Source of the DNA: Actinomycetota bacterium
GTDB taxonomy: Bacteria > Actinomycetota > Acidimicrobiia > Acidimicrobiales > CADCSY01
NCBI GenBank assembly: GCA_019347915.1
Contig: JAHWKL010000002.1
Location: 2,425-66,424, forward strand
Length of the DNA: 64,000 nucleotides
Direction of reading: 5' to 3'
Under the pieces are notes generated by a model. The model worked only from the letters and a program-made list of their open reading frames with translations, searched no databases and had not been told where the DNA came from. This document shows, in pieces, positions 20,601 to 44,600 of the stretch (position 1 is the stretch's first letter; every line of letters begins with the position of its first letter). Made by a program: the position numbers and the translations under genes.

Positions 20601-23600
20601 GAGGTCGTAGCGGAACATGCTGACGCCCTCGAGGCTGCTGGCGGCGGCGAGCAGCTCGCCGTCGGTCGGGTTGCCGCCGAGGTCCTCGACGGACAGGACG
20701 ACCACCTCGGTCTCGGTCGTCTCCACCGGCGGTGTGTAGCGGTACACGACCTTCCGGCTGGCGCCGCTACCCACCACCTGGAGCGGGACGGCCTTCAGGC
20801 CGTCGGCGGTCTGCACCAGGACCAGCGGCACGGGCGACCCGCCGACGGTCCGGCTGGTGCCGTTGATGGTCAGGGCGAACTCGCCGCCGGGGTCGAGGAT
20901 CGAGAGATGGTCCAGGCTCGCTCCCGACGGTGCCGTGAACACGACGTCGAGGTAGGGGTTGCCGCTTGCCGGGTTCACCGCGCCGACGTCGATGGTCCCG
21001 CCGTTGGTGACCCCACCGCCGAGGCCGGCGGTGGGCGCCGTGGACGCCGCCGCCGGGTCGCCGGCGTCGACGACGTCGAAGATGACCTCCTCGCCGGACG
21101 AGTTCCGGAAGCCCATCTTCAGCTTGCCGTAGATGGACAGCAGGCGGACCTGGTCGGGGATGTCGGCGAGGAAGAGGATGACGACGTCGCCGGTGGCGAC
21201 CCGTGACAGGTCGGCGTAGAGGCGGCCGGAGATCGAGATGTTGTTGGCGGCGAAGTTCAGCGTGCCGCTGACGAGGATCTTGCCGTCGGTGGAGATCTTC
21301 ACGAGCACGACGCCGTTGAACACGGCCTCCGAGGTGTAGATCGAGTAGATCTTGGCCGACCCGGTGATGACCATCGGTGACGTGAAGGCGGCGAGGAAGC
21401 CGTCGCCGGCGTTCCCGGCGGCGACGGCGGCGGCCTGGCGGGCGACCTGCTGCTGCAGGGACGCCAGCCACTGGTCCGCCGTCTGGGCGGTGGGCAGCGC
21501 GAACGCCGACGACCGGAGGGCGAAGGGGTCGTCGATGGATGGCAGCGTCTTGAAGAACTCGACGCCGGCGGCGAAGTCGTTGATGGTCAGGCCGGAGATG
21601 GGCTCGAGGAGGATGCCGCCGGGGACCTCGACGTTGATGAACACCTGGAGCGGGCCGAGCTCGGACAGGCCGAGGCGGATGGTGAAGCCGGCCATGCCGG
21701 CCATCGAGAACCCGCCCTGGAGGCCGAGGTAGAAGAGCCGCTGGTGCACCGGCGTGGTGTTGTCGAACGTGCCGATGACGTTGTAGTTGCTGTCCAGCTT
21801 CAGGATGCCGCCGATCAGGCCGGCGTCGATCTCGCCGCCGAACATCGAGCCCTTCACCTGCACGGCGATGGCATCGATGCCGATGATGGGGAACTTGCCC
21901 TGAGCCAGCAGCAACGGCTGGATGCGCACCCCGCGGATGGAGCCGCTGAACTCGAGGCCCTCGAGGCCCTGGATGGCGGTGACCGAGGCCGACAGCGTGA
22001 GGACGAAGTCCTCGGGCGCGCTCTCGATGTCGGCCCACTGGATGCCGATCTCGTCGATGCGGACGGGCAGGAACGATGGCCACTGGAACGAGTCGCCGGT
22101 CGCCGATCCGACCGAGAGGAAGACCCCGAACCCGGGCCGGGTCTGGAAGGTGCCGTCACCCAGGAACTGGAAGTTGCGGGCCTGGCCGCTGAGCGCCAGC
22201 GAACCGATGTTCACGGTGGCGCCGATCGACTGGAACGACAGCATCACGTCGGTCGTGCCGGCGGCGCCGGTGTCGAGACGGAGGTCGCGCGCCCGCAGGG
22301 TGACGTACGTGCCGAGCTCGAGCTCGAGCGTGTCGATGGTGAGCTGGAAGGCGTCGACCCTGCCCTGGCTGAAGGTGAGGGCGATGCGGAACGCCTCGGT
22401 GTCGGGCGTGCCGTCGGGGCGCTTGTCGTCGGCCGTCTGCCGGTCGAGCAGCGTGGCCGAGAAGGCCTTCCCCGGGAAGAGCTTGGCCCCGCCGGTGGCG
22501 ATGTAGACGTTGCCGGTGAAGGCGCCGAAGGCGTCCCCGGCGCCGATGGTGACGGTCAGGCCGGAGATGCCGATCCGGAGGTCGTCGAGCTCCAGGATGC
22601 CGGCGAAGGAGACCTTCTCGTCCGTGGTGCTCGTGGTCAGGCCGTTCCCCGGCTGCGTGGGTGGGAGGCCGTAGGCCAGCTCGACGGTGCCGAGGCTGAA
22701 GCCGTTGCCCCGCACCACGAGGCCCGGGATGATGCCGGGCGACAGCTCGTCGTCGTTGGTGAGCGGCTGGCCCAGGTCGTTGGTGGCGATGTTCGACCGG
22801 TCGGACGGGTCGTACGGCCGGATGGTGCCGGTGACCCCGAAGCTCGGGAAGGTGATCGTGGCGCTGTTGACCTTGACCAGCTCCTGGTCGACCGGGGCGA
22901 GCGGGTCGTAGGAGACGACGATGCCGCCGGCGACCAGGTCGGCGACGCCGGGGATGTGGGCCCCCAGCGATGCGGCTCGCAGGCCCCACTTGCCCGTGGG
23001 CTCCACCCAGAAGTTGCCGCTGAGGAGCCCGAAGACGTCGACGGCGAGGTCGAAGGTGCCGAGGATCCCGATCAGGTCGACCGTCACCCCGCTGGCCGTC
23101 TGCGCGGTTTCGCCGGCGCTCGGGTTCGACGGCGTCCCGCCGAAGGCGAGGCTGGCACGGTCGACGCCCACGGCGATGGTGAGCACGACCATGCCGTCGT
23201 CGTAGCCGAAGTCGGCCAAACCGATGCTCGGGCCCTGGAGCGACAGCGGTCCGAGAGCGATGGCGCCGCCGGTGGTCGCCGCCCCGGGCGCCGAGGCGTC
23301 GATGGTGAAGGCGGCGGTCAGGTCCTGGACGTTGGCGTTGTCGTCGCTCGTCCCGTCCGTCGCACCCTCGCTGAACCACGTGCCGTCGAAGAGGACGTTG
23401 ACGGCGCCGGGACCGAACATGGCGGTGGCGTTGGCGGCGTCGGCGTCCTCGAGGAAGTAGCGGTAGGTGACGGTGGTGGCGGTGTCGGCCCGGCCACTGA
23501 TGAGCAGCGGCACCCCGATGATGGTCGGCCGGTCGCTGACCCGGAGGAGGTCGAGGACGCCGGTACCGGTGAGCTTGAACGGTGCGGTGGCGACCGCGAG

Positions 23601-26600
23601 CGACGACTTCTTGATCGGGGTGCCGTCGAGGCTGGTGTAGGTGATGTCGAGGTAGCGCTGGGCGTTGATCTGCGCCGCGGTGATCGCTCCACCGTTGGTC
23701 GGGTTGGCCAGGGTGGCGATCGGGCCCGGCTTCGGATGGGGGTTCGTCTCCGTCGGCGTGACGAGGAAGAACCGTTCCTCCTCGACCATCGACGTGGAGC
23801 CGCCCAGGTCGCTGAAGCCGCCGGCGAGGAACCGGACGGTGACCACGCCAGACGTCGGCATGTCGCCGGTGACCGCGTAGCGCCAGGTGTTCGCAACCGC
23901 CGTCGGCACGGTGGCGACGGTGAAGCCGACGGCGGAGCCGTTGACCAGGATCTCGATCTCGGCGCCGGGGTCGGTGATGGTCTCGGGACGGAGACCGACA
24001 CCGTTGACGTCGTTGAAGACCACGTCGACGTACCCGGGGAAGGACGCCGGGGTGATGGTCGTGTTGCCAAGCGGTGCCGCCAGGTCGGCCGTCGGGAACA
24101 GCGTGGGCTTGGCCGGGTCGGCGGTCGGCGCCTCGCTTCCCTGCGGGGGGAAGAGGTCGAACCCGTCGACGCGGAAGTTGTTGAGGCGGAAGCCGGTCAG
24201 GGGCGAGATGGTGAAGGACCCGAAGCCGGCGAGGCGGGCGATGTCGGTGTCACCGATGGTGATCAGCACCGCCGCCTGGGCCATCGTGACGTCGAGCGTG
24301 CCGTTGGGCTGGCGGGTCAGGCCCAGCGTGCCGGTGAGCTGGAAGACGCCGGCAACGGCGATGACGACGTTGCTGGCCACGAACGAGAACCGCCCGCCGG
24401 CGAGCGCCGTTGCGTGGTTCGGCACCGTGATGGAACTGGTGGACGTGTTGACCTCGAAGGTCACGTCGCCGGACACGGCGAGGCCGTCGAGCCCGACGAA
24501 GGCCAGCGTGCCGGTGGCCCGGAGGGCGTAGCCGGTACCCGTGCCGGGGGTCTGGAACCCGACGGACGCCCCGGTGATGCGGACGCCGATGGCGTCGGGG
24601 TTGAGGTCACCGGTGCTGAGCCATCCGGGGCCCTTGCCGATGAAGATCTCCAGGTTGCTGCCGCTGAAGGTGCCGCCGCCGACGGCGAAGTCGCCGCGGA
24701 TCTCGAGGATGCCGCCGAAGTCGAAGTCGAGGTTCTGGATCCGGAAGAAGAAGGTCGGTGATTCGGCGAGGTCGAGGACGACCTCCGTGTCCCCCACGTC
24801 GATGGTCTGGTTCACCTGCACGCCGGTGGTGTTGATGGAGAAGCCGACGTTGGCGTCGAGCGGGAAGCCGGTGGCTGCTGTGACCACCCGCCCGGAGAAC
24901 AGGCCGGCGACGCCGCCCGAGGTGGTCTTGGGACCGGTGGAGGTCCTGTCCTCCGTCGTGTAGGCCCCGGGCGGGAAGATGACCACGGCACCCTGGATGC
25001 TCCCGAGGCCGGGGCTGTCGTCTCCGACCTCGTCGGCCGCCAGCGACCCGTTGGCCAGGGCGATGCGGGTGACCTGTGAGCCGGTGGGACCGACCCGCTC
25101 GAAGGCGACGTCGGCGCGGACGTCGACACCGGCGATGGTCAGAACGACGTCCTCGGCCGCGACCCGCAGGTACGGGCCCTTGGGCAGGGCGAGCACCCGG
25201 ACGTTGGGGACGATCGGGGGACGGTTGCCGTTGGCGTTCCACGTGACCGTGTAGCCCCCGGTCACCGCCACCACCGTGACGTTGTCGCCGGAGCCGTACA
25301 GCGCCTCGATGGCGGCGTCGACCGTGGCGGCGTCGGCACCGACGACCTCGATGGCGTGCGAGATCTCGTGGGCGTCGATCTTCCCGTTGCCGTTCACGTC
25401 GAGGGCGAGGGTGAAGGTGCCGGCGGTGACGCCGACGGAGACCGTCTGCACCTCGGCGGCGCTGGCCGACCCCTGGGTGTCGGTGACCACGTCCACGCCG
25501 GCGAACTGGATGGTCTCGTTCACGGGGACGGCCAGGTTGTTCACCTGGAGGGTCAGGCGGGCGTCGAAGGAGATGGGAAGGTTCTTCAGCTCGACGTTGC
25601 CGGTGATCTCGCCGGCGACGCCGGCCGGGGTGAGGACGAAGGCGCCGGCGCCGTCCGTCAGGTGCAAGCCGACGTCGTCGGTGTCGCCGGGATCGTTGGC
25701 ATCGCCGAGGAACAGCTCCACCTCGGTGAAGGCCACCCGCACCACCTTGGTGCCGGCGGCCGTCGTGCGCTGTTCGAACACCACCACGGCCTGGAGCTGC
25801 TGGCCCATGACGGTGACGCTGATGGGCGAGCCGAGGGAGCCGGCCTGGATCCGCAGGTAGGGCCCGGCGGGCAGCGTGGCGGTGGCGGGCGTCTGCTCCG
25901 TCGTGATGTAGTCGACCGTCTGCTGCGCCGTGGTGTTGTTGATCTGGACGGCGGTGGCACCGCTGAGCGAGAAGGTGCTGGTGAGCGCCGGGAGCGTGAG
26001 GGTGGCCGGGATGTTCGCCGCCACCCCCTGGGGCGTGATCTTGATGGAGCCGGTCGGGATGTGGACCGGGACGAACGTCGTGGTGCCGTTGCCCAGGGCC
26101 AGGGTGACGTCGGTCAGCTCGATGGTGACGGTCTGGGTCGACGGGTCCTTGCGGAAGGCGAAGCCGCCGGTGAGCCGCTGACCGGCCACCTCGAGGGTCA
26201 CACCGGTCCCGCTGACCTCGAGCCCGGGCTGGATGACGTCGTCTCCGACGGTCCGTGCCGTGGTGAGGGTGTTGATGGCGATGCTGAACGTGCCGGACAG
26301 CACGACACCGGGGATGTCCACGGCGACGGTGGCGGTCAGGCGACCGGCGACGCCGCCGGCGGTCGTGGCGGTGGCGCCGACCATCACGAGCTCACCCGAG
26401 CCGTCGGTGACGAGCACGATGTCCCGCTCGGGGGTGCCGATGCGCAGGCTGACGTTGGCGAAGGCGACCCGCAGGTCGTACACCGGCGTCGCCGGCGTCA
26501 GGATGGAGCCGTCGGCGGCGAGCCGGGTGCGGCGCTCGACCGAGAGGTCGGCGGTGACGCGCTGATCGGCCATCACGAGCGACAGGCCCGTGACCGAGAC

Positions 26601-29600
26601 CTTGACGTAGGGCCCGACCGGCAAGGTGAGGGTGGTGGTGGTCCCGCCGCCGACGAACTGCTCGTTCACGGCGAGCGGCATCACCTTGGCGCCGACCGTC
26701 TGCTGCAGCTGGTTGATCTCCACGGTGACCGTGGCGCTCGCCGAGCCGAACGTCCCGCCGAGGAGGAGGCTGGCCGTGCCGCTGATGCGGCCGGCGAAGC
26801 CGTTCGGCGTGATGAGCAGGAAGGCCGACCCGTCGCTGACGTGCACGCCGATGTCGTCGGCGTCACCGGGTTCACCGGGTGCGCCGACGAAGAGCTTCAG
26901 CTGCGACACGCCGATCCGCACGATCTGCTGGTCGTCGGTGGTGTCGAGGACGCCGTCGGCGCCGGCGCTTTGGACCTGCTCGAACAGGAACACGCCCTGG
27001 ATGCCCTGGGCGAAGGCGGTGACGCTCGCCAGCGTGGTGGAGTCGCCGAGCTGGAGCCGCACGAACCGCCCGGCGGGCAGGTCGAGGCCGAGCGTCGTGT
27101 CGACGACGGCGGTCGGGGTGGTGTTGATCTGGAGGCGGACGGCGAGCGAGCCGAGCGTGAGGGCCAGGTCGTCGAGCCCGACGAGGGAGATCGTCCCGCC
27201 CACGTCGGCCGCCACCCCGGTCGGCTGCAACAGCAGGCTGCCCATCCCGCCGGTGATCTTGACGCCCCGGTCGTCAGTCGTGTCGGTCAGCGTGGCCCCG
27301 TCGTCGCCGAGGAACAGCTCGCCGTCGGAGATCGACACCTTGACGATGCGGGTGGTGCCGGTGGTGACCTGCTCGAAGGAGAACGTCCCCGACAGCCGTT
27401 GCCCGCCGATGGCGAGGCTGACGCCGGTCCCCCGCAGGCGCAGGTACGGGCTGGGCCCGGCGGTGTCGAGCTCGAGGGCCAGCGTGCCGGACAATCCGAC
27501 GCCGGGGACATGGAGGGCGACCGTGCCCGACAGGCTGCCGGAGATCCCCGCAGCGGCGATCGTCAGGTTGCCGGCACCGTTGGTCAGGGTCACGAGGTCG
27601 GTGGTGCCGGTGCCCAGGCGCAGGGTGATGGCCGACAGCACGAGCCTGGTCGTGGCGGTCGGGGCGGATCCGACCTGTTCGAGGGCGATGTTGCCGCTGA
27701 GCGTCTGGCCGAGGACGGCCAGTTGGACGTTGTTGCCCGAGACCCGCAGGAAGGGACCGGCAGGCAGGTCCAGCGAGACGGTGGTGCCGGCCAGGGCGAC
27801 CGACTCGGTCACCTGCCGGGAGGTGCGGTTGAGGGCCAGGCCGAAGTCGCCGGCGAGCGCCACGCCGGTCGGGAGCACCGAACCGAGGTTGACGGCGCCC
27901 TGCAGGGTGCCGGCCAGGCCGTCAGGTGCGAGGACGAGGATGCCCCCCACGCCAGTGAGCAGCCCGGTGGTCCCGCCGAGCGACAGGCTGCCGCCGGTCA
28001 CCGCGATCACCGTGCGCTTCTGGCCGGCGGCGTTGGTGGCCGTCTGGATGGTGAACGACGCCTGCAGCGTGGGGCCGCCGGTGCCGAAGGTGAGGGTGAC
28101 GTTCTCGCCGAGGAAGCGCACGTAGGGACCGGCCGGCAGCCGGGTTCCGTCGGGCAGGACGACGGCGGTGGTGGCGTTGTTGACCTGGAGCGTGAACGTG
28201 CCGGTGATGCCGACACCGGCACCGAACGAGAGCGCGGATGCGACGGTGAGCTCGCCGGCCAGACCGGCCGGCGCCACCGCCAGCTCACCGTTGAGCGTGA
28301 CCGTCCCCAGCCCCTCGCCGAGGTCGAGGAGCAGGTTGGTGACGATGATCTCGACGGTGCGGGAGCCGTCGGCGGCCGTCTCCTGCTCGAAGGAGACGTC
28401 GCCGGTGAGCGAGATGCCGGCGACGGTCAGGGTCACGGCCGTGCCGGTGATCTTCAGGTACGGGCCGGCGGGGAGGTCGACGGTCAGGACGCCGATGCCG
28501 CGGGAGGTTCCGAAGGCGGCGCCCGTGCCCTTGCGCCAGGTCGCGGCGCCGGTGCCGGCCGAGGTCACGAGGTCGGCGACGGTGTCGCCGTCGAGGTCGC
28601 CGACCCCGATGGCCACCACCGTCCCGATCCCCAACGCCGAGGCGGCGGAGAAGCCGGCCCATGTCTCGTCACCCGGGTTGAGGGCGACGTCGACGCCGGT
28701 ACCGGTGGTGCGGACGAGGTCGAGGGTGCCGTTGCCGTCGACGTCGGCGAGGACCACCGCCGTGCTGCCGGAGGTGCCCGGCGCGGTGGCCGCGGTGAAG
28801 GTCCCGTCGCCGGCGCCGAGGTGCAGGCTGTCCGCGGTACCCGAGAGGCCGGAGCCGACGACGAGGTCGAGGTGGCCGTCGTCGTCGACGTCACCGAGGG
28901 CGATGACCGCGGCGGCAGAGCCGACACCGGCGAGCACCGAGCCCGTCCCGACGCCGTTCCACTCCCCCGTGCCGCCGTCGACGCCGCTGTTCAGGTACCG
29001 GGTGACGTCGGAGCCGGCCGCCACCAGCACGTCGCCGAAGCCGTCGCCGTCGAGGTCGCCGACGGCGATCGACCGGGCCGAGGATCCGAGGTCGGGGCCG
29101 CTGAGGACCTTGAACAGGCCGGTGCCGTCGTTGAGGTAGACGAGCGTGGTGGCGCCGGAGCGGCCGACGACGAGGTCGGGCCGGGTGTCGCCGTCGAGGT
29201 CGTCCAGCGCCACAGCGGTCACGCTGTCGGCGTCGGGCCCGACGAGGATGGCCGGCACGACGTCGAAGGGGTCGCCCACGCCGTCGTTGAGGTAGAGGAG
29301 CACACCGGCGGCGGTGCCGAGGACGAGGTCGGGGCGGGTGTCGCCGTTGACGTCGGCGACGGCGGCCGAGGTGGTGGTGCCGGGCTGCAGGCCGAACCCG
29401 ATGGTGTCGAGCACCGCGCCGTCGGTGGTCGGGCGGGTGTTGACGGCCAGCGCCAGCGTGCCGGCGAGCGAGGCGCCCGGGATGGTGATGGCGACGGTGC
29501 CGGACAGCGTGCCCGCCAGTCCTCCGACCTTCGGCCCGGTGCCGTCGGGGTCGCCCAGGAGGAAGAAGCCGGTGCCACCGGTCAGGGTGACGAGGCGGGT

Positions 29601-32600
29601 GGTGCCGTCACCGAAGGAGGCGCTCACGTTGCGGGCGGCGACCCGGACCACCGAGGCGCCACCGGGGATGGCCGCCTGGTCGAAGACGAACTCGCCGGAG
29701 AGCCGCTGCCCGGCGAACACGAGGCCGGCGCTGCCCTCGACCCGGGCGTACGGGCCGGCGGGCAGGTCCAGCGTGATCGTCTCGCCGTCGAAGACGAACG
29801 ACTCGCGGACCCCGGCAGTGGTCGTGTTGACGGCCACCGTGAAGGTGCCGTCGAAGTCCACTCCACCGCCGGGGACGGAGAAGGTGACGGTGCCGCCGAT
29901 CCGGCCGGCGAGCCCCGCGCCGGTGAGGACGAAGAACCCGGTGCCGGCGCTCAGGGTGACGACGCCGCCGCCGAGCGACAGCGAGACGTCGGTGGCCGCC
30001 ACCCGGATCGTCTTCGCGGCCACGGTGCCGGGCGGGGCCGAGGGGCTGACCGTGCCGGTGACCTGCTCGAAGGCGAAGACGCCCGAGATGCTCTGGCCGG
30101 CGAGGGTGATGGACGCCGGTGCCGCCGTGGTGCCGAGCTGGACGCGGATCGAGCTCGCCGGAACCGTCACCGTGCCGGCCGTCTGCTCGGCGGAGGTGGT
30201 GTTGATCCGCAGCTCCACCGGCAGCAGCGTGGCCTGGAGGCCGGGGAAGTCGAAGTCGGCGCTGGCACTGACCACGCCGTAGACGCCCGCCGCCGTGATG
30301 GTGAGGTCGCCCGACGAGATGGTCACGACCACCGGGGCGGCGCCGCCGCCCACCGGGTCCCCGAGCGAGAGGACGATCTCGCCGTCGGCGAACGCCGAGC
30401 TGCCGAGCTTGACCTCGAGCGTGGTACCGGACTGCGCAAAGGAGAACGCACCGACGAGGCTGATCCCACCCATCCGGAAGGTGAGGTTCTCGGCGCCCAG
30501 CAGGGCGTAGGGGATCTTGGGTGTCGGCGGGTCCGGATCGGCCGGCGTCGCCGCGGGCACCTGGAACTCGGTGTCGACGAACTGCTCCGTCAGCGTCTCG
30601 TTGTAGCGCACGTGGATGGTGCCGCTGAGCTGGAGGCCGGGGATGCCCAGCAGCTGCACCGTGCCGCTGACGCTGAACGCACGGCCCGTGGCGTCGGAGA
30701 ACGCCATGCCGCTGGCGTTGGTGATGAGCAGCCCGCGTGCGGTGGGGTTGAGGTCGTCGCCTTGCAGGAAGGCCGGGCCCTGGCCGAGGAAGACGGTGAC
30801 GTCCGTGACGGTGACCACGCCGCCGGAGAAGTCGACCGTCCCCAGGATCTCGACGAAGTCGCCGAGCTTGACGACACCGGAACCGGAGAAGGCCAGGAAC
30901 GGGCCCGGGAAGTCGGGGCGATCGGCGACTTCTTTGGAGGAGAACACGATCGGGATGGTGACGCCGGCCACCTCGATGATCTCGTCCACCGCCGAGGTGG
31001 AGCTGTTGAACCGCACGGCGATGCTGACGTCGGCGTTGAAGCCGCCGCCGAGGACGTTGTCGGAGCCGACCGCGGCCGTGCCCGAGAAGGTGCCGGCCAC
31101 GCCGCCGCCGGTGCCGCCGAGGATGATGAACGCCCCCTGGCCGCCGGTGACCCCGATGTCGGTGGTCAGGACCACCGACACGCCGGTGAAGGCGAGCTTG
31201 GTGATCGCCACCGGCTGGTTCAGGAACAGCGTCGCCTGACCGGCGGCGCCGCCGAGCACCAAGTCGAGATCGGCATCGTCGTCGACGTTGACCAGCACCA
31301 CGTCGGTGGCGCTCGCCCCGCTCGTCGTCATGTCGGTGCCGTTGCGGAAGCCGAGCCAGGTCGTGGCATCCCGGCCCCGGTTGAGGAACAGCACCGGGTT
31401 GCCGGTGGTGCCGAGGACAACGTCGAGACGACCGTCGTTGTCGACGTCACCCACCGCGACGGCTCGCCCGGCCGGCGTCGCCGGCGAGGCTGCCAGGTCG
31501 ACACCGGCGTCCAGTCCCGCCCACGCACCGGAGGTGAACCCGCGGTTGACGTGGACGAGCGCCGGCCCGCCGTCGACGGCCACGACCACGTCGGCGAAGC
31601 CGTCGCCGGTGACGTCGCCCGTTGCCACTCCACGCACATCGGCCGTGTTGGCGACGGGCGTGGCAGTGGCGAACGCCTGCCAGACGCCGCCGTCATCGGC
31701 GCCGCGGTTGACGTAGACGCTGTGGTCGACGCCGGTGTTGGCGACGAACAGGTCCAGCAGGTCGTCGTTGTTCAGATCGACGAGGGCGAGGCCGGTCGTG
31801 GCGCCGTTGGCCAGGAGGTGGTCGGCGGTGGCCGGGAAGCCGTTCCACGGGTCGGCCTCGCCGGCCTTGCCGCCGTTGAGGAAGAGCTTGGTGTCAGCGC
31901 CCGTCCCCGTGGCCCCCACGACGATGTCGGCGAACCCGTCACCGTCGACGTCAGCCACCGCCACCGAGGTGGCATCGGGCGTGGTGAGGGTGGCGCCCGT
32001 GTCGAACCCGAGCCATCCGCCGGTGACCGGGTCGTTGCCGAGGTTGCGGGCCACCGCGCTGGTGCCGTTGCGGATCACGACGGCGTCGAGCAGCCCGTCG
32101 GCGTCGAGGTCGCCGAGGGCGACGGCGACCGTGGTGCCCGCGCCCTCGGTCACGGTGTCGGCCGAGGTGGAGGCGAACGTCGCCGGCGCGGTGCCCAGGA
32201 ACAGCGCGGCGCCGGTGGACGAACCGATGAGCACGTCGAGGCGGCCGTCGCCGTTGACATCCCCGATGGCCACCGGGCTGGCGCCGGTCGTCGCCTCGCC
32301 CAGGGCGGTGCCGGAGCCGGGGAAGCCGGGTCGCGTGCTCTGGGACAAGGCGAACGAGCCGCTGAACGAGAAGCCGCCCACCCCCAGGGTCCCCTCCACG
32401 GCGACGTGGAGGAACGGCGGTGCCGGCCCCGTGTTCAGCTGCAAGGAGGCGGTGCCGCCGGCGAGGGTGATGCCGGCGGGCAAGGTGAAGATGCTGATGT
32501 CGCCGGTGCCGTCGTTGTAGACGAGGTCGCCGGAGAAGGTGGCGGCGACGCCGCCGGGCGTGACGACCAGTGCCCCCTTCCAGTCGTGCGCCGGCGTGAT

Positions 32601-35600
32601 GTCGACGAAGCCGCCGACCTGCAGCGTGAGGTCGGCCACGGCGATGCTGATCTCGGGGTCGGGGCCGGAGCGGCGCTCGATGACGACGCTGCCGCCGATC
32701 GACTGCCCCGCCACGCTGAGCGTGCCGGAACCGGTGATGCGCAGCAGGTGGCTGGCCAGCTCCACCGAGCCGACGGTCTGCTGGACCTCGGTGGTGTTGA
32801 CCTGCAGGTCGAACGAGCCGGTGAGGGACACGGCCGGGATGTCGAAGGCCACGTTGGCGCTGATCTCGCCGAAGAGGCCACCGGTGACGAGCACGACCGT
32901 GCCGTTGATGTCGGTGGCCCGCACCAGCGGGGCCGACGGCGGTCCGAGGGCGAGGCTGCCGTTGGTGATCTCCACCTGGAGCGCCGAGGCCGTCTTGGTG
33001 ACGGTGACGTCGCCGGCGAGCCTCTGCCCGGCGATGGTGAGGATCACGCCGGTGCCCTTGACCCGGAGCGGGACGCCGGCATCGAGGACGAGCGACGTGG
33101 AGACGCCACCCACTACGAAGGTCTCGTTCACCGACGCTCCGGTCGAGTTGAGCTCGAGGGCGAGGGTGCCGGAGAGGGTGACGCCGGGGACGTGGTGGAG
33201 GGCGACGGTGCCGCTCACCCGGGCGGCCATGCCGGTGCCGCCGGTCAGGAACAGCGCCTCGCCGTCGGTGATGGTGAGGAAGTTGCGGGTGCCGTCACCG
33301 AGGGCGATCTGGACGTCGGTGGCGGCGATGCGTGCCCTCGTGCCGCTGGCGGTGGTGACCTGCTCGATGGTGATGTCGGCTCGGATGCGCTGGCCGGCCA
33401 CCACCAGCACGATGTCCTCGCCGGCGATGCGCAGGTACGGGCCCGCCGGCACGGCGAGCGTCACCGTGGTCGTCCCCACGACGAGGTCCTGGGCGACCGC
33501 GGCGGTGGTGGTGTTGAGCTGGACCTGCAGTGCGCCCGTCAGCGAGAAGGCGCCGCCGACGTCGAGCACGATGGCGCCCGAGAGCGACCCGGCGACACCG
33601 CTCGGGGTGATGACGAACAGGCCGGCGCCGTCGGTGAAGCCGACGGTCGGGTCGGCAGTGGTGCCCAGCACGACCAGGTCGACGTCGGCGAGCCCCAGGC
33701 GCACCACCTGTGCGCCGGCGGCGGTCGTGACCTGCTCGAACACGACGTCGCCGGTCAGGCTCTGCCCGAGCACGCTGATGGTGAGCCCGGTGCCGGACAC
33801 CTGCAGGTACGGGCCCGCCGGCAGGGCGACGCCGTCGACCGTGACCGGCGCCCCCGTGGAGTTCACCACCATGGCCAAGGAGCCGGAGACGGCGACGCCG
33901 GGGACGCTGAGCGACATGCCCACGGAGAACCGGCCGGCCAGCCCCGCCGAGGTGAGGACGAGCTCGGCCGTGGTGGTCGGCGTCTGCGTCACCGTGACGA
34001 TCGGCGCGGCCGCCGTCCCGCCGAGGTGCAGTGACACGTTGGTGGCCCCGATGCGGACCACGGGCGCACCTGCGGCGTCGCTCGAGCGGGTGATGACCAC
34101 GTCGCCACGCAGTGACTGGCCGAGGATGCCGAGGTCGACGGCGGTGCCGGTGATGCGCAGGAACGGCCCGGCCGGAAGGTTGATCGTCGTCGGCGCGCCG
34201 CCGGCCACGGCGAAGGTCTCGTTGACGTGGGCGGCAGTGGTGTTGACCTCGACGGTGAGCGCGCCGGACAGCGACACCTGCGGGACGGCCAACGCCATGG
34301 TGCCGGTGATGCGCCCGACCAGGCCGGTGGAGGTGAGCAGCAGCAGCGCGGTGCCGTTGCGGAGCGTCAGGATGGGCGATGCGCCGCCGAGGTCGAGCGT
34401 GACGTTGGTGATCGCCAAGCGGACGGCGGACGTGTCGGCGTCCGCCGCCGTGCCCCCGGGCACGCCGTCGGCCCCGTACGAGGTCACCTTGGTGGCGGCC
34501 ACGTCGCCGGTGAGGCGCTGCCCGAGCACGGTGAGCACCATGCCGGTGCCCACGAACCGGAGGTACGGACCGGCCGGGAGGACGACCGACAGCGTGGTGC
34601 CGCCGACGCTGGCCGACGTGTTCACCGCGCCGGACGTGGTGTTGACGACCAGCGACAGGCTGCCGGTCAGGCTGGCGCCTGCGGGCAGGGTCACCGCCAT
34701 CCTGCCGCCGACCCGACCGGCGACCCCGGTGCCGGTGACGACCAGCACGCCCGACCCGCCGGTGATGCGCACACCGTTGGAGCCGGCCACGGTCGCCAGG
34801 TCGATCGACGACAGGCCGATCGTCGTGACCGTCGTCCCGCCCGGGCCGGCGGCGCGCTCGATGCGCACGTCGCCGGTGAGGGTGTGACCGAGGATGGTGA
34901 TGGTCAGCCCGGTTCCCTCCACCCGGAGGTAGGGGCCGGCGGGGACGTCGAGCACCAGGACCGTGTCGCCGAGGTCGACCGAGCGCTCGGCGGGTGCGAC
35001 GCCGGAGTTCAGCGCCACGCTGAACGTGCCGCCGAACACCACGCCGGGCACGGTGACCGTCACCGTGCCGGCGATGCTCCCGGCGACACCGGTCGGGCCG
35101 GCGACGAGGATGCCGGTCCCGCCGGTCACCGAGACGGCGGAGCCGAGTGAGACCTGCACGCCGCTGGCGGCGAGGACGACGTCGCCGGTGGCGGTCTTGT
35201 CGAAGGCGAACGTGCCTTGCAGCGACTGGCCGGCGACCTGGAGCGTGGCGCCGGCAGCGACGAGTTGGGTGACGACGGTGCCGTCGGCGAAGGTGACCGC
35301 CACGCCGGGCCCGCTGCTCCCGGCGATCTCGAGGGTCTCGTTCACCGCCGTGCCGGTGGTGTTCACCCGTGCGGTCACCGTGCCGGTGAGCGCCACGCCG
35401 GCGACGCCGACCAGCCTGACCGATCCCGTGGCGACCAGGGCGTAGGTGGAGCCGACCTTGACCAGGCCGATGCGGGCGTCGGAGAGCAGCACGCCCGACG
35501 CCAGCGGGTTGACCTCGCCGGTGCTGAGCCGGGCCGGCCCTCGACCCAGGAAGATGGTGAGGCCCTCCCCGGCGAAGACCTGCGCCGGCTGGCCGCCGAT

Positions 35601-38600
35601 CGTCGTGTCGCTGAAGGCGATGTCGCCCTCGATGGTGACGAAGTCGGCGATGGTGAGGCTGAGGTTGGACAGCGACACCTCGAACACGTCGCCGGTGGCG
35701 AACTTCACGACGAGCGTGCGGCCGCCGACCTCGATCGACGTGTTGATGGCCCCGGCGGTGCCTGCGGGACGGGTGTTGACCCGCAGGAGGATGTCGGCGC
35801 CGGCAGAGACCGGTCCGGCGGCGATGTCGGCCTTGCCGGAGAGGTAGCCGGCGAGGCCGTCGGCGCCGAGGACGAACGCGCCATCCCCCTCGGTGAGGCG
35901 GGCGCCGTCCCCGCCCCCCCCGACGGTGACGTCGACCTCGACGTCGGTGGCGGCCACGACGGTCACCGAGGCACCGGCGCCGTCGGTCGCCTGCCGGAAG
36001 GCGAAGTGCCCGGCGAGCACCGGCCCGCCGGATCCAAGCGTGAGGTCGGCCCCGGTGACGTGCACCTGCACGTAAGGGCCGGCGGGCAGGGTCAGGACGC
36101 TGGTGGTGCCGCCCAGCGAGAAGTCTTCGGTCACCGGCGCCGTACCGGTGTTGATGTCGATCCGGGCGGCGTGGAACGAGAGCGTGATGCCGCCCGGCAG
36201 ATCGAACACCACGTCGGTGAGCGAGAGGCTGCCGGCCACGCCCTGGGGGGTCACGACGAACTGGCCGGAGGCCTCGTTCACCGTGACGACGTCGTCCGCC
36301 TCGGTACCGATGACGAGCAGCGGCGTTCCCGTCACGCTGGCCACCGTCACCTTGACGACGGACCAGCCGGCGGCGTTGGTGGACTGCTCGAAGGTGAAGT
36401 CGCCGTGGAGGCTCTGCCCGGCGATCTCGACGACCGCACCGCTGAGGGTGACGGCGAGCCGGCGGGTCGCGGGTCGGGTGTCGACCTCCACCGATGCACC
36501 GGTCGACACGGAGACGTCCGGGATGGCGAAGGCCAGATCGCCGGAGAACGAGCCATGGGCGCCGCCGGGTGTCACGGTCAGGTCGGCGGAGGCGTCGGTG
36601 ACGACGACCAGCCCGCCGCCGAGGGACAGCGACGCATCGTCGACGAGGAGATGGACGACGCCGCTGGTGGAGTCGACCACGACGTCGCCGGTGATCGGCT
36701 GGCCGAGGACGGTCAGGGACAGCGCCGTCCCCGAGAGCCGGACCATCGTCGCTCCGCTCGGTCCGGTCGGGAGCGCCAGCAGCACGTCGTGGCCGCCGAG
36801 CGAGATGACCTCGTTGACGTCGGCGCCCGTCGAGTTCACCTGCAGCTCCAGCGTCCCGGAGAAGCTCACGCCCGGGACGGCGAGCGTGACCGTGCCCCCG
36901 ACTCGGGCCGCCACTCCCCCGGTGGCCACCAGGACGACGCCGCGGCCGTCGGTGAGCGACACGACCGGGAGGTCCCCGCTACTCAGGGCGAAGCGCAGGT
37001 TGTCGACCACCACCACGAGGACGGGCTCCCCGCCCGAGGTGACCCGCCGCTCCACCGCCACGTCGGCGGCCAGGACGTGGTCGCCCACAGTGAACAGGGC
37101 GCCGACCGCCCCGACCCGCAGGTACGGGCCGGCGGGCAGGTCGCCGGCGGCGGCCGTGCCGGTGTTGACCTCGACCGACACGTTTCCCACCGACAGGCCC
37201 GGGATGGCGAGGCTGGCGACGTCGGCGGCCAGGCGGCCGGCGACCCCTCCGGCGCCCATGACGACCGACCCGGCGACGTTCTCCAGCGACAGGAAGGTCG
37301 TGGTGCCGTCGCCCAGGTCCAGCGTGCCGCCGGTGATCGAGATGCGGGTGACCGGAGCGCCGCTCTCGGTGCGGCGCTCGACGTCCAGCGTGGCCGCGGT
37401 GACCGTCTGCCCGGCCACGGTCAGATCGATGGCGGTGCCGGTGAGCCGGAGGTAGGGACCGGCCGCCAGGGTGGCGTCGTTGTCGGTGCCGGCGGCGTCG
37501 AAGGTCACCTCCGCTGCGGTGGTGTTGACGACGATGCGGAGGTCACCGGAGAGGGAGACGCCGGGCAGGGCGGCCACCACGGTGCCGGAGACGACGCCGG
37601 CGACGCCGGCACTGGACAGCTGGATCTCGCCCCCACCGCCGGTGAGCGAGGCGAGGTCGGTCGACCCGTCCCGCAGCACCAGCTCGACGTTGGTGGCGGT
37701 CACCGTCATGCCGGCCGCGGTGTCGACGAAGGTGAAGTCGCCGCTGAAGCTCTGCCCGGCGACGGCGGCCGTGAGCCCGACGCCGGTCACCGAGACGAAC
37801 GGGGTGGTGCCGTCCGACGTCTCGTCCGGCGTGCCGCTGGTGCCGTCGGTGAAGGCCACCACCACGTCACCGCCCTCGAAGGCGATCGTCTGGTTCACCG
37901 CACCCGTGGTCTCGTTGACCCGGGCCCGAATCTGGCCGCCGATGGTGACGCCGGCGAAGCCGACGAGCTCGACCGTGCCCCGCACGTCGAGGGCGTACAG
38001 GCCACCGACCTCAACGAACCCGACGGTGGCGTCCGTGACGAGCAGGCCTCGAGCGAGCGGGTTCCGCGATCCGTCCTCGAGGAACGCCGGTCCGTCGCCC
38101 ACGAACACCGTGAGGTTGGTGCCGGCGAACTGGCCCGGGCCGGCGCTGAAGTCGCCCTCGATGGTGACGACGTCGGCGATGGTGAGCGACAGGCCGCTGA
38201 TCGACACCGAGAAGGCGGCGGCACCGGATTCGAAGGTGATGGAGAGGTCCTCGCCGCCGACGGTGACGACCTCGTCGATGGCGGCGCCGGTGGTGTTGAC
38301 CCTGACCGAGACGCTGGCACCAGGGGTGAGCCCGGGGATCGACGCGTCGATGTCGCCGGAGAGGTATCCGGCGATGCCGTGGCCGGCGCCCGTCCCGCCG
38401 GGCGTGCCCTTCAGGACGAGGACGCCGTCGGCGTCGGTGATCGTGCTGGCGCCGTCGACGATAGTCACCGTGCCGTTGCGAACGGCCAGGATGGTGCTGG
38501 GCGTCGTGCCCGGAGCGGCCGACCGCTGGAAGACGAAGGTGCCGGCGATCGTCCCCAGCGTGCCGACGGGGAGCGGGGTGCCGGTCGGGACGACGATGAC

Positions 38601-41600
38601 GACTCGCACGTAGGGCCCGGCGGGGAGGGTGACGGGAGGCGAGGTGAGGGCGACGGCGGAGGGGCGGGTGTTGACCTGCACGCTGACGCCGGCGGACGCC
38701 AGGGTGAGACCACCCGGGAGGTCGAACGACGCCGTGGCCGAGAAGGCACCGGCGACGCCGTCGGCGGCGATCACCAGCGAGCCGTCGGCGTCGTCGATGG
38801 TGACGTACCCGCCGACGGAGACGTCGACGTCGGTCAGCGTGACCGTCACGACCGGCGTGCCGTCGGCGGCGAGCGTCCGCTCGAACCAGACCTCGCCGGT
38901 GAGCGCCTGGCCGGCGACGGTGAGGGTGACGGCCGTTCCTCCGACGAGCACCTCGCCGGCGGCAGTGTCGATGTCGGCCGACACCGAGCCGGTCAGCGAG
39001 ACGCCCGGGACGGCCACGGAGACGCTGCCGCTGAAGGTACCGGCGAGGCCGGTCGGCGAGATGGTCAGCGAGGCGGCGGCTCCGGTGATGCGGGCGAGCC
39101 CGCCCGCCAGGACCAGCGATGCGTCGGTCACCGTGACCGACACGGCGGTGGCGGCCTTGGTGATCTCGACGTCGCCGGTGAGGCGCTGGCCGAGCACGTC
39201 GACGACCACGCTGGTGCCGGTGAAGCGGAAGAAGGGGCCGCCCTCCACGTCGACGGTGACGCCGGTGCCGTCGACGGTGAAGGTCTCGTCGACGCCGGTG
39301 GTGCCGGTGTTCACCTCGAGGTGGAACCCACCGCTCACCGAGACGCCGGGGACGGTGACCCGGACCGTCCCGCTGATGGCGCCGGCGACCTCGCCGCCGG
39401 AGAAGACGAGCAGCCCGGCGCCATCGGTCAGCCGCACGAGGGGCGACGGGCTGGGAAGGGCGAAGGTGGCGTTGCTGACGGCGACCGTGACGACGTCGCC
39501 GCTCGTGCCGGGCCGCTGCTCGAGGGCGAGGTCGGCGCGCAGGGCCTGTCCGTCGGCGGTGAGCGTGGCGCCGAGGAGGACCACTCGCAGGTACGGCCCC
39601 GCCGGGAGGCCGGCGGTCGCGGTCGGCGCCGTGTTGACGGCGACGCTGACGGCCCCGCTGAGCGAGAGCTGGCCCGGCGACGTGTCGACCGTGGCGGCGA
39701 ACGTGCCGGCGACACCGGCGGCGCTCACGTCCAGGCTGCCAGCGACGCCTGCGAGCACCAGCGTTCCCGGGCCCACGTCGAGGGTGCCGCCGCTCACCGT
39801 GACCCGGGTGATGGCGCCGGCGCCGCTCCCGGAGCGGGCGACGGTGAACGACCCGCTGATCCGCTGACCGGCGACGTTCAGGGCCACGCTCGTCCCGCTG
39901 AGCCCCACGTAGGGGCCGGCCGGCAGCTCCGGCACGGTGCCGAACGGATCCACCGGAGCGCCGGTCGTGTTCACGACCAGCTGGAGGGTGCCGGTCTCCA
40001 GGCTGACGCCGGGGATGTGGAGCTGGACGGTGCCGCTCGCGGCGCCGACCATCCCCGCCGCCGACGACCGCAGGGTCGCCGTGCCTTCGGTGAGCGACGC
40101 CACCGGCGTGCTCGCACCCGAGGGGACGACGTGGAACGCCAGCCCGGTGACGGTGATGTCGAGCGTGCCGTCGGCGGCGCGCACGAAGGTGAACGTGCCG
40201 GTCAGCGACTGGCCGAGCACGCCGAGGGTCAGCGTGCCGCCGATGTCGGTGAACGGCACCGCCGAGCTCCCCTCCTCGCCGGTGGCAAACGTGACCTGCA
40301 CCGGGTCGCCACCGGGGATGGCGATCGACTCGGAGAAGGCGATGCCGAGGCTGTTCACGCGGACCGAGAGCTCGCCGGCGAGCGTCACGCCCGGCACGCC
40401 GATCAGCTGCACCGTCCCGCTCCCCGCCAGCGCGTGGTCGGCGCCGATGCGCACCACGCCGACGGTGGCGCCGGTCACGAGCAGCCCGCGAGCGAGCGGG
40501 TTGAGCGTGCCGTCGGCGAGCCAGGCGGGGCCGACGCCGATGAACAGGCGGAGGCCTCTGCCGGCGAAGACCTCGCCGGTCGTGCCGGTGGCGAAGGTGA
40601 CGTCGCCCTCGAGCGTCACCACGCCCCCGACGTCGAGGGTGACGTCGGTGAGAGCCAGGGAGAAGACGTCGCCCGCCTGTGCCTCGGTGGCGTCGAACCT
40701 CACCTCGACCGTGTGGCCGTCGAGCACGACGGTCTGGATGACCCCGTTCCCCGTGGTGTTGATGCGCAGGAGCGCCTCGGCGTCGAACCCGCTGCCGGCA
40801 CCCGAGCCCGGGGCCCCCGAGAGGAAGCCGGCCACACCGGAACCGGGGAGCACGAGCACGCCGCTCCCGTGGGTGAGCAGCTCGGTGGAGCCGGCGGTGG
40901 CGGTGATGCCGTCGAGCACGACGACGACCAGCGGCACGCCACCCTCACCGACCTGGCGCTCGAAGGCCACCGACCCGGCGAGCGTCCCGACGGTGCCGAG
41001 CGAGAACGTGGTGCTCGCCACCTGCACCCGCACGTAGGGGCCGGCGGGCAGTCCGGCGGCGGCGACGGGCCGGGTGTTGAAGGCGACCGTGACGGCGGCG
41101 TCGGTGACGGTGACGAACCCGGTGGCGTCGAGCTCGGCGGCGAGCGTGCCGGCGACCCCGCTGGCGTCGACGACCAGCGTGCCCGTGCCGCCCTCGACGG
41201 TGAGGGTCTGCGACGAGCCGGCGGCGAGGGAGAGCGCCACGCCGGACGCCGCCACCGAGAGCGCCTGGCCGTTGCGGGTGACGGTGGCCGACGTCGCGGT
41301 GACGCTCTGGCCGGCGGCCACGAGGGTCGCCTCCCCCGACGCCTCGACGTCGACTGAAGCGAGCACCGACGTGGAGCCCAGGGTGACGGCGTCGCCGGTG
41401 CCATTGTAGACGACGTCCCACCCGGTGCCGGTGAGCGCCACCTCGGGGACGCCCGCCAGCGTCACCAACCCGCCGGCGATGCGGAGGGCGACGCCGCCGT
41501 CTCCCTGGAGGAGCAGGTCCAGCGCGGTGCCGGTCACGGAGACCGCGGGCCCGCCGGGCACGGCCAGCACGCCCACCACGCTGGTGGCGTCGAGCACCAG

Positions 41601-44600
41601 GTCGGACCCGGACTGAGCCAGGGTGGCGGTGGGGGCGCTCACGGTGAGCACGTCACCGATGGTCACCGCCAGGTCGGCAACTGCCAGCGCGAACGCCCCG
41701 GCGTCGAGGGCCTCGCCCGACACGTCGTAGGTGCCCGAGAGCGTCGCCCTGCCCACGACGAGGCGAGCGCCGGCGACGACGTTGACGCGGACGAGGCCGC
41801 TGACGGCGACGCTCACCGTGTAGTTGCCGGTGGTGCCGGTGATGCCCGAGAACGACACGGTCAGCGTCTCCAGCCCGAGCACGCCGAGGTCGACGTCGTC
41901 GAGCGTCTCCGTGCGTGACCCCGACGCCGCGTCCATCACGTACTGCTGGAGGATGGGGACGATGGCACCGACGAGCCCGTCGAGCGGCGAGCCTGCCGTG
42001 TACTCGCTGAAGTGCGGCAGCACGGCGCTGACGGTGCCGGTCTGGGGATCGGCGGTCGTCGCCATCTCCTCCAGCGACCCGTCGGGCGCGACGTAGTAGA
42101 TGCGCGAGGTGGGGGCGGCGTCGCCGACGGCGATCGTCAGCACCGGGTCGACGAGGAAGGTCGTGATGGCGGCGCCGGTGCGGGCGTCGTAGGCGAGCAG
42201 GTCGAGGACCGGCGACGTGGTGTGGAGGCCGGGCACGCTCCGCGCCTCCCCGGTCACGAGGACCCACGCGTCGGCGGGCAGCCCACCCGGAGCGAAGCTG
42301 AGGGTCACCGGTCCGGCGGTGACGGTGCCGCCGAGCTCGGCGGTCACCAGCACCGAACCTGCGGGCGGCGTGAACGCCTGCGTCAGCGCTGGTTCGGTCT
42401 GGCCGTGGGGGCCGGCGTCGACTGCGGTCGCATCGTCGATGACGGTGACCGTGGCGCCTGGCCGGGAGAGGGTGATCGGACCGTCCGCCTGGACGGTGGA
42501 CGTGCGGGTGACGAGGTCGACGGCGACGGAGCCGTCAGGGATGGACGCTTCGGTGACCTCCACCGGTGGACCGCGGCCAGCGTGCAACGTCACGTCGCCG
42601 TCGGCGAACAGGGGGCCTGCGGCCCAGACGAGGCTGGACAGCGTGGCGAACGTGGCGGCCATCGAGCCGCCGGTGGCGGCGGAGCCGTCGCCGTGCGAGC
42701 CGGCATTGCTGGTCGGCGACCCGGCCAGGACGGCGGTGGCGTCGATCGGGCCTCCGCCGGCGACCGGCAGGAACGGCAGTGCCGCCACCGCGGTGGCCGT
42801 CGTCGCCGTGAGCGCCGCCGAGCGGAGCGGGACAGCGGTCGGCGCCAGGCGTGCCAGCGCGGCGGTGAGGCGACCGGCGCCGCCGTCGTCCCCCAGCCCA
42901 GCGCCGACCAGCGCAGCGACGACGAGCCCGGCCGTCTCGAGAGCCGCCTGTGGCGATGCCGGTGGCGCCAGCTCGGCGGCGACGCCGGTCGGGTGGGCCA
43001 CCGACGACGTCCACGATGCGCCATGGGCATGGACGGTCACCGCCCCGCCGGCGTCGACGGCGCGGCCGATGTCGGCAGAGGTCTCGTGGCGTGCGACCGT
43101 CACCGCGGCCAGCGATCCGGTCGAACGGGCGCTGGCGTCCTGGGTGGCCGTCACGGCGAGGTGGCCGGCTGGCGCCAGGGTGGGCCCGGAGCCGATCGTG
43201 GCCGAGGTGAGCGCGGAGGAGACGACGACCGCGCCACCGGGTGACAGATCGGTGCCGGCATCGGCCGTCGCCGCGTCGGTCGAGGTCGCCATCACGTCGA
43301 TCGAGGAAGCGCCGTCAACGGCGGCCCCATCGCCGATCGACGCTCGGGTGCCGGCGTCGGACACCACCACTGCCAAGCTCGACGTGGCCGGCGACGCTCC
43401 CCGGGCGACCGCCTGAGCGGTTCGCGACGAGCCCGCACCGAGGGAGACGGCGCCGGGCTCGCCCCGCCCGACGAGCAGTGTGGCACCGTCGAGGATGCGC
43501 GCCTCGGTGGACCCGCGGGCCAGGTTGACGGCGAGCGACGCCGTGTGGCCGCCGGACGTCGACGCGTCGCTCATGGCCTGGGCCAGGTCGGCGTCCACCT
43601 CGACCGACGGCGCCTCGAGCACGAGGTGGCCGTCGAGGTGCGCACGGGGCGCGAGCGACGTCACCACCACCGCCACCGCCCCGCCCGGGGCGTCGCCGAA
43701 CCCCGAGGCGTGGACCTCGCTCACGTCGGTGGCACGGGCGGCGACGCGCTGCGTCTCCGACGTGCGGATGGTGAGCGACCGGTCACCGCCAGAGGCGAGG
43801 AACGACTGGGTCTGGCCGATGGAGCGACCGAAGCCGAGGGCCCTGGCGACCGCCACCGGGCCCGAGGGTGTGACCGTCAGGCCGAAGATGAGGTCGGCCG
43901 GCGACCGACTGTTGCCCGTGGCGCCCCCCGCGCTCCCCGAGGACCACACCTCGAGCGCGCTGTCGGACGTGGCCTCGACGACGAGCCGCCGGGCGACGAT
44001 CCCGTCGGCGCTCGCCCCCTCGACCGCTGCGGTGGTGACCCGCCCCACGTCAGCCATGGCGATGCCCGCCCCTGCCGGCGACGCCGATGCGTCGCCGATG
44101 GCGCGCCCGTCGGTCGTGTTGTTGGCGAGGACGCTCAAGACCCCGCTCGCCAGCACCGAGCTGGCGCCGCCCAGCGTCGAGACGGCCCGGCTGGCGAGCA
44201 CCACCGACGCCAGCGCGGCATCCTGGGCCGAGTCGGCGTGGGCGGCGTCGCCGAGGGCCGTGGCCCGTCCCCAGGCCACCGAGTCGGCAACCAGGGAGAC
44301 GTCGCCACTGGAGACGAGGCGCGAGTCGACGACCGACACCGTCGCTGACGATCTGGCGACGACCTCGGCGCGGGTGCCGGTGGCGTCGGCGCCGGCACGC
44401 GAGCGTGCGGACAGCGTGATGTCGCCACCTCGCAGAGTCGCCCCGTCGACGGTGACGGAGGCTCCTGCCCCGGCGTCCGAGCCCGTCGACTCGTCGCTGG
44501 CGGTGAGCATGATCGCCCCGTCGGCCGCCCCGCCGCTGGTGTCGATGCTCGCCCCCCGCTCGACGAGGACGTGCTGTGCCCGGACGGCGAGGCCGGTCCC

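Follow-up and report, generated by a model that had tools for sequence, protein, structure and literature searches.

The question raised by this locus is whether the repeats of a giant bacterial protein are ordered at a second level, above that of the single repeat. The locus lies in a 64,000-nucleotide stretch of an Actinomycetota bacterium genome (assembly GCA_019347915.1, contig JAHWKL010000002.1, positions 2,425 to 66,424), which is referred to here as the window. A single open reading frame (ORF) on the minus strand (window 2499..46235) encodes a protein of 14,578 amino acids (aa), uninterrupted over 43.7 kb, in which residue i has the window coordinate 46235-3(i-1). A preliminary description had placed five copies of a junction motif in this region and had proposed that they partition a repeat array into super-repeats; all five are housed in the giant ORF. 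Results pointed to a family in which a super-repeat of seven units (heptad) is carried on a predicted continuous β-ribbon, with a variant junction (J) unit as periodic landmark. This is probably the best explanation of the locus as a whole, and the function of J within it is one that we infer.

The repeat array extended over aa ~1474-7345 (~5,900 aa; window 24201..41816, minus strand). A generic unit hidden Markov model (HMM) built iteratively, with 113 match positions, split it into ~46 head-to-tail homologous units of ~115-125 aa each, and the unit alignment, column profile and coupling analysis suggested six long amphipathic strands per unit. The array was interrupted three times, at aa 4605-5009 (propeller 1), aa 5603-5918 (propeller 2) and aa 6906-7014 (a small unannotated domain). 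No model in Pfam or NCBIfam covered the unit array, and a profile search of PDB sequences with the unit found no relative (best E 0.19); the ~120-aa unit and the J unit fall in no described repeat or domain family of Pfam-A, NCBIfam or the PDB sequences. Membership of the RHS/YD, AsmA-like and autotransporter groups was rejected after no matches to such models were obtained, and the AsmA, DUF490, Chorein_N and RHS_repeat models gave no Pfam match in the giant protein.

The pattern G.GP..L.....NP occurred exactly five times in the giant protein, at aa 1900, 2713, 3564, 5151 and 7200 (window 40538, 38099, 35546, 30785 and 24638), while 2,000 shuffles of the protein gave a mean count of 0.001 and a maximum of 1. 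The five copies first reported were recovered at the same places and with the same sequences. The corresponding units, all on the minus strand, were J1 (aa 1849-1986, window 40278..40691), with the loop motif GVGPAWLADGTLNPLARG at window 40485-40538; J2 (aa 2666-2804, window 37824..38240); J3 (aa 3509-3645, window 35301..35711), whose type has the nearest counterparts in other lineages; J4 (aa 5105-5234, window 30534..30923), which follows the unit split by propeller 1; and J5 (aa 7153-7278, window 24402..24779), the last but one unit in the array. They were defined by the motif, the unit alignment and the J and generic HMMs, together with cross-genome identity for J3 and sequence reading for J4. 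The module had been described as distinct and ~150 aa long; it proved instead to be a variant of the general unit, ~126-139 aa in length, which the generic unit HMM covered end to end at 45-66 bits, a lower score than for ordinary units. The flanking sequences proposed for it (L.IAD.VTIEGD before and YAL..GTV.L.G..GV...G....RVN after) were found in copies 1-3, whereas copies 4-5 had degenerate forms of them.

For the class test, one HMM was built from 146 J units and another from 1,963 ordinary units, all taken from other proteins. The J-minus-generic score was +48 to +85 bits in the five window units and -10 to -105 in the other 41, and the five J units formed one clade in a neighbour-joining tree of units. 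J is a discrete variant class of the basic unit, with exactly five members here. Compared with an ordinary unit, J lacked the LPAGPY start, and where ordinary units make a short turn from strand 3 to strand 4, J had a conserved loop of ~14 residues, F.G.GP..L..G..NP.A.G. Across the 146 J units, from 110 proteins and several phyla, the loop residues were ≥90% conserved, with the consensus N-P-L-A-x-G and an invariant N-P. No conserved acidic, aromatic or His/Cys residues were found in the loop of these units, and no conserved Thr or His after the N-P. A calcium site in the loop was rejected, as acidic residues are not conserved.

The intervals J1→J2 and J2→J3 each contained exactly 7 units, and the spacing reported earlier for copies 1-3 (2,439 and 2,553 nucleotides, or 813 and 851 aa) was correct. 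Super-repeat 1 comprised J1 and 6 ordinary units (aa 1849-2665, window 38241..40691), and super-repeat 2 comprised J2 and 6 ordinary units (aa 2666-3508, window 35712..38240), with 39-48% identity to super-repeat 1 per position. A third, open super-repeat of J3 and 6 units (aa 3509-4380, window 33096..35711) was collinear with super-repeat 2 only in part and overlapped a zone of single-unit duplications. All three lie on the minus strand and were delimited by self-alignment and unit identity, with the tree in addition for super-repeat 2 and cross-protein comparison for super-repeat 3.

When 300-aa windows were compared with overlapping chunks of the giant protein, the best self-alignments had offsets of 802-864 aa and 39-46% identity, chaining aa 1700→2500→3350→4280. 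Units U03-U09 had their best or near-best partners in U10-U16, and mean unit identity was 39-42% at the 7-unit offset versus ~30% for each of the remaining ones (permutation p<1e-5). Most positional pairs of super-repeats 1 and 2 were sisters in the neighbour-joining tree, with bootstrap supports that were low to modest, as expected from only 113 columns. Positional orthology between the super-repeats was thus seen both in the module phylogeny, with its J clade, and in the identity peak at the 7-unit offset. The proposed duplication of ~830-aa blocks stood in so far as the J1-J3 blocks are collinear with 7 units each; the duplication is old, however, and not specific to this gene. DNA repeats across the region were short and 60-80% similar, which shows that the duplications are of old date and that no assembly artefact underlies the array.

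Beyond J3 the order changed. The five junctions had been taken to delimit super-repeats throughout, which held for the closed intervals J1→J2 and J2→J3 but not for J3→J4 and J4→J5, where unit identity demonstrated no periodicity. The interval J3→J4 (1,587 aa) contained 9 units, a propeller insert of ~370-400 aa and the unit split by that propeller, while J4→J5 (2,049 aa) contained a 315-aa propeller and a 105-aa insert, with 4 units ahead of the propeller, 8 between the two and 1 after the insert. Given this composition, the propellers explain only part of the extra length, which had been attributed to them, and the extra units contribute too. Units U19-U23, after J3, were 38-48% identical to their neighbours, which is the signature of unit-by-unit duplication.

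The three inserts, all on the minus strand, were placed as follows. Propeller 1 (aa ~4640-5008, window 31212..32318) lay in the strand 2-3 loop of one unit, on the evidence of Pfam, sequence reading and a partial unit at aa 5009-5083 that matched HMM positions 41-112. Propeller 2 (aa 5604-5917, window 28485..29426; Pfam, HMM and sequence reading) lay in the linker between two units. Both were identified as FG-GAP β-propellers (Pfam matches at aa ~4659-4800 and ~5679-5750), with scores on the two inserts of 87.3 and 87.6 bits for PF13517 (cut-off 26.9) and 64.4 and 48.8 bits for PF01839 (cut-off 22.1). The unannotated insert of ~105 aa (aa 6907-7013, window 25197..25517; HMM and sequence reading), also in an inter-unit linker, contained …AEVQTVSVGVTAGTFTLALDVNGNGKID…YTVTW… and had no match in Pfam or NCBIfam. 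Outside the main array, four more divergent β-units were seen ~2,170 aa past it (window 16275-17699, aa 9513-9987) and one unit-like segment near the N-terminus (window 44622-44930, aa 436-538); none of these was J-type.

Homologues of this arrangement were widespread. With one super-repeat as query, 47 homologues were obtained, and the J motif was present in 26 of them. Nearly all were fragments from metagenome-assembled genomes (MAGs), assigned to Actinomycetota, Rokubacteria, Planctomycetota and Verrucomicrobiota, many without a taxon name. Pfam domains in them were limited to FG-GAP (few) and an unrelated PF00512 (one), and their names in the sources were only 'hypothetical', 'beta strand repeat-containing' and 'large repetitive protein'. 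When 1.84 billion representatives were searched exhaustively with a profile, 1,934 proteins were returned at E≤1e-3, of which 595 reached E≤1e-30, the longest of 7,951 aa; the resulting family size of ~1,900 counts clusters at 50% identity. Genomic loci with homologues, found with the J3 region as query, included an Actinomycetota MAG, Ilumatobacteraceae, Microbacterium, Solirubrobacter deserti, Verrucomicrobiae and others. Out-of-frame translation rich in Arg, His and Pro, which is common among the homologues, ended or broke P0004, P0025, P0028, P0033 and L001, the last of which spans three reading frames. Metagenome assemblies often contain genes of this family in frame-shifted or broken form, so that the real lengths of these genes are underestimated.

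Across the family, the J-to-J spacing was 7 units in 25/34 insert-free intervals. Homologues carried 2 to 4 consecutive J's, and heptad copy number, compared across homologues as the preliminary description had suggested, varied from 1 to 3. P0054 starts 'uuJ-6u-J-6u-J-8u' (u, unit), like the giant protein, and P0048 has one heptad more than the giant protein; the later order 'J … propeller, u, J, uuu, propeller' recurred in P0050 and L001. Single J's outside heptads were found in L003, L006 and P0059. P0018 (1,282 aa) contained two J units with five ordinary units between them, a 6-unit period, and P0157, P0159 and P0161 had no J among their 20-27 units.

All five J copies were closer to a match in another genome than to any paralogue in the giant protein. 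The closest matches were P0001 for J1 (54%), L001 for J2 (48%), P0011 for J3 (71%; followed by L001 with 56% and a Rokubacteria fragment with 54%), P0033 for J4 (37%) and Solirubrobacter deserti for J5 (42%). As orthologues are closer than paralogues for each J, the block duplication is old.

The position-by-position comparison covered 25 closed heptads from 21 proteins. Between proteins, identity averaged 38.6% on the diagonal and 30.6-31.7% at cyclic shifts, with the diagonal dominating at all seven positions, and an ordinary unit had its best match at its own heptad position in 62% of cases versus 17% expected. Stretches punctuated by J showed identity peaks at offsets of 7 (42.1%) and 14 (42.0%) units, which persisted when the J units were excluded, while 14 J-free stretches (≥15 units each) were flat at 29-33%. 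The heptad is an old, differentiated building block of variable copy number, followed by an aperiodic array.

Across 444 units, the column profile alternated strictly between large hydrophobic and small or polar residues. AlphaFold2 models were obtained for three units (J-1, J, J+1; predicted local distance difference test, pLDDT, 87.8; predicted template-modelling score, pTM, 0.73) and for the eight units from J1 to J2 (933 residues; pLDDT 78.4, pTM 0.51), the alignment for the latter containing rows from the window and database proteins only. Both were confident models that consisted nearly entirely of strands of 11-15 residues with tight turns, with essentially no helix. As an independent check, mean-field direct-coupling analysis was applied to 1,552 pairs of consecutive units (effective number 1,522). 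The top couplings were antiparallel ladders of sequence-adjacent strands (s1-s2, s2-s3, s3-s4, s4-s5 and s5-s6), and s6 of unit n coupled with s1 of unit n+1. The pattern repeated in both units of the pair, and non-neighbouring strands showed few, weak couplings (scores ≤1.5). These ladders within and across units indicate that the array would form a single uninterrupted β-meander; a chain of separate β-sandwich domains was rejected, as no strong couplings joined non-neighbouring strands. Taken together, AlphaFold and the coupling analysis predict a continuous amphipathic antiparallel β-ribbon with six strands per unit.

Propeller 1 was assigned to the s2-s3 loop and the J loop to s3-s4, with both propeller 2 and the 105-aa domain in s6-s1' linkers. 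Since the turns of a meander alternate between sheet edges, the topology would place the three inserts on one edge and the J loop on the other; with six strands per unit, an even number, every J loop in the array would fall on that same edge. Foldseek searches of PDB with the three-unit model returned nothing significant (best E 0.05, outer-membrane barrels). With the eight-unit model the top matches were two ApoB100 structures (E 3.9e-4 and 6.5e-4, probability 0.89 and 0.96), whose alignments ran to ~1,080 columns over the whole 933-residue model with TM-scores of only 0.16-0.18 and identity of 8-10%, and LptD and TamA appeared only at E≥0.009 and TM≤0.2.

In the explanation that we consider probable, the family is built from an ancestral heptad (~820-880 aa), which old block duplication has left in 1-3 closed copies according to lineage; each of the six units between J's has its own position-specific sequence type. 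The remainder of the array has grown through single-unit duplication and the insertion of propellers into loops, and is aperiodic. J would most likely be a periodic structural landmark recurring every 42 strands, a distance of roughly 20 nm if the ribbon is flat and each strand takes up 0.47-0.48 nm. It could provide a site for docking, bending or setting the register, and the heptad may serve as a ruler in the manner of the titin and nebulin super-repeats. Several observations weigh against this explanation. The remaining insert-free J-J spacings were 5 (once), 6 (three), 8 (once), 10 (three) and 13 units (once), some family members contained no J at all, and J4 and J5 stand outside any periodic context. 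J-J identity across species (39-43%) was not above that of some ordinary positions, being similar to positions 3 and 6, so that J is distinct and not exceptionally conserved. Coupling analysis of units 2-8 apart, a low-power test, showed nothing above noise, and a closed superstructure with 7 units per turn received no support from it.

A rival explanation takes the heptad as a frozen record of duplication, in which J would be simply the most diverged of seven unit types and neither J nor the number seven would carry a function. Such a record would fit the position-specific sequence kept at all seven positions and not by J alone, as well as the resemblance of J to positions 3 and 6, the exceptions in spacing and the homologues without J. 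It sits less easily with the ≥90% conservation of the J loop across phyla, with the 7-unit spacing that is retained though heptad number varies from 1 to 3, and with the maintenance of each J paralogue as a distinct orthologue lineage. The J's found alone (J4 and J5, and those of L003, L006 and P0059) argue for a role independent of duplication history, and we regard the frozen record as rather unlikely. A binding role for the loop, in which it would recognise a specific ligand or partner (cell-wall polymer, glycan or protein) and be repeated for multivalent attachment, draws on its conservation, on its exposure at the sheet edge if the meander topology holds, and on other adhesion-type parts of the protein (FG-GAP propellers, RTX blocks and a weak LamG-like match). 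The conserved residues, however, are G, P, L, N and A and not the acidic, aromatic or His/Cys residues of metal and sugar sites, and a related solved structure or family was not found by Foldseek or the PDB profile search, which makes this role improbable. About equally doubtful is a more elaborate picture of the ribbon as a bacterial ApoB100-like β-belt, >100 nm long, ~4 nm wide and one sheet thick, whose hydrophobic face would coat a hydrophobic surface (envelope lipid, membrane vesicles or substrate particles), with J loops on one edge and propellers on the other as inter-strand inserts, and with the heptad as a ruler for a spacing of ~20 nm or for one turn of the twisted ribbon.

Two further possibilities carry much less weight. 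Asparagine-mediated autocleavage has precedents in the NPTH loop of FlhB/YscU and at Asn42-Pro43 of reovirus μ1, and the invariant N-P of J, set in a loop between two long strands, could be read as a strained self-processing site that nicks the polyprotein once per heptad. The consensus is NP-L-A and not NPTH, though, the conserved Thr and His are absent after N-P, and a nick inside a continuous hydrogen-bonded sheet would free no fragments; self-processing is very unlikely. An artefact of low-complexity composition, repeat mis-assembly or a spurious ORF in GC-rich DNA comes to mind in a GC-rich window with many long overlapping spurious ORFs and many frame-shifted homologue fragments. It is hardly credible for a frame open over 43.7 kb, with DNA repeats only 60-80% similar, ~1,900 homologous clusters, collinear orthologues of like architecture (L001, P0048, P0050 and P0054) and co-evolving residue pairs that yield a coherent fold.

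As for the rest of the giant protein, a signal-peptide-like segment was present at the N-terminus, and Pfam covered only a few parts (the FG-GAP propellers, the RTX blocks and metzincin-like HExxH regions), while NCBIfam gave no match across the first 10,000 aa. RTX blocks (HemolysinCabind matches) were located toward the C-terminus, at aa ~10577, ~13011 and ~13485. A metzincin-type HExxHxxGxxH motif was seen at both ends, at window ~45099-45191 (aa 349-379) and ~2982-3089 (aa 14383-14418), with Peptidase_M10 scores of 20.4 bits for the N-terminal motif (below the cut-off of 24) and 25.6 bits for the C-terminal motif (above it). Dot plots of the C-terminal third (window ~2502-19200, aa ~9000-14578) showed its own, weaker internal repeats at aa ~9000-9400, 10600-12400, 12800-13200 and 13800-14200, and a weak LamG/ConA-like match was obtained at aa ~13923-14100. 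The final ~60 aa, rich in R, P, S and W, appear disordered or doubtful.

The GC content of the window was 67-75%. Long overlapping spurious ORFs were common at this high GC, reaching 2,892 aa opposite the giant gene, and real flanking genes were picked by third-codon-position GC. An ORF on the plus strand (window 1297-2628) encodes a right-handed β-helix protein (Pfam Beta_helix, E 5e-11) and meets the 3' end of the giant ORF tail to tail with a 130-nucleotide overlap (window 2499-2628). Flanking the giant gene are genes for a glyoxalase, a K+/H+ antiporter, an ABC importer of the sugar type (binding protein, two permeases and ATPase), a hydrolase and a MOSC protein, with no type I secretion genes (ABC exporter, membrane-fusion protein and outer-membrane factor) among them. 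Named relatives of the antiporter belonged to Acidimicrobiales and Acidimicrobiia MAGs, with 64-66% identity, which makes an uncultured actinobacterium from this group the probable host.

Giant bacterial surface proteins are usually portrayed as monotonous strings of near-identical domains. In the present protein the order extends to a further level, a heptad built from differentiated units and marked by J, and this arrangement is retained in Actinomycetota, Verrucomicrobiota, Planctomycetota and Rokubacteria-type lineages. When a fibrous protein keeps a fixed period in evolution, that period usually corresponds to a physical spacing in the fibre itself or in its partner, which makes the heptad a handle on function. 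The literature searched covered surveys of giant proteins and the Omnitrophota tubules, and no description of this unit or of a bacterial heptad super-repeat was found in it. Giant extracellular tandem-repeat proteins are known; the conserved higher-order repeat together with the unusual predicted continuous-sheet fold would appear to be new here. A continuous amphipathic sheet, if true, widens the structures known beyond lipoproteins and outer-membrane proteins, and the ApoB-like belt, if true, would be a new extracellular protein architecture. With the unit and J profiles, scattered fragments of such genes in metagenomes can also be identified and put in order.

Among known systems, tandem arrays with a fixed number of modules per higher-order repeat are found in titin (7- and 11-domain super-repeats) and nebulin (7-module super-repeats). 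These are eukaryotic intracellular muscle proteins made of Ig/Fn3 domains or short α-helical modules, and their period matches a known partner filament. The array resembles them in its fixed module number (7 units here), in the greater likeness of modules at the same position and in a super-repeat number that varies among homologues. The likeness is one of organisation and not of homology, as the folds are unrelated, and only the first part of the array in the giant protein is periodic.

Giant Gram-negative RTX/BIg adhesins such as MpIBP, SiiE and LapA reportedly have extenders of separate Ig-like β-sandwich domains, often near-identical, and are said to be exported by type I systems. The giant protein shares with them a very large size and secreted character, a long tandem-repeat extender, RTX blocks and inserts. 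It differs in units that are ~30% identical and predicted to form one continuous sheet, in its heptads and in having no flanking type I genes, and the Big and cadherin Pfam models found no match in it.

For giant proteins of Omnitrophota, AlphaFold predicted 'antiparallel β-helix' tubules made of a long single antiparallel β-sheet (bioRxiv 10.1101/2023.11.21.568195). The present giant bacterial protein is likewise predicted to form one long sheet of antiparallel β-strands and not a chain of beads. The Omnitrophota models have regularly spaced external α-helices and a hollow interior, whereas the models here are essentially helix-free, and no inter-turn couplings were seen.

The β-belt of ApoB100 is a continuous amphipathic sheet of 120 strands with a mean of 11 residues, ~4 nm wide and with nine inter-strand inserts, and the authors of that work warn that lipid-free AlphaFold predictions collapse such sheets (PMC11839476). 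ApoB100 lacks the regular ~120-aa repeats and the heptads of the array, and no match to the vitellogenin-type lipid-transfer domain of its N-terminal part was obtained with Pfam in aa 1-1500 of the giant protein. There is no sequence similarity between the two and TM-scores are low, so that the likeness to the ApoB100 β-belt (PDB 9e9r and 9ea7) is one of predicted architecture only: a continuous amphipathic antiparallel sheet with inserts between its strands.

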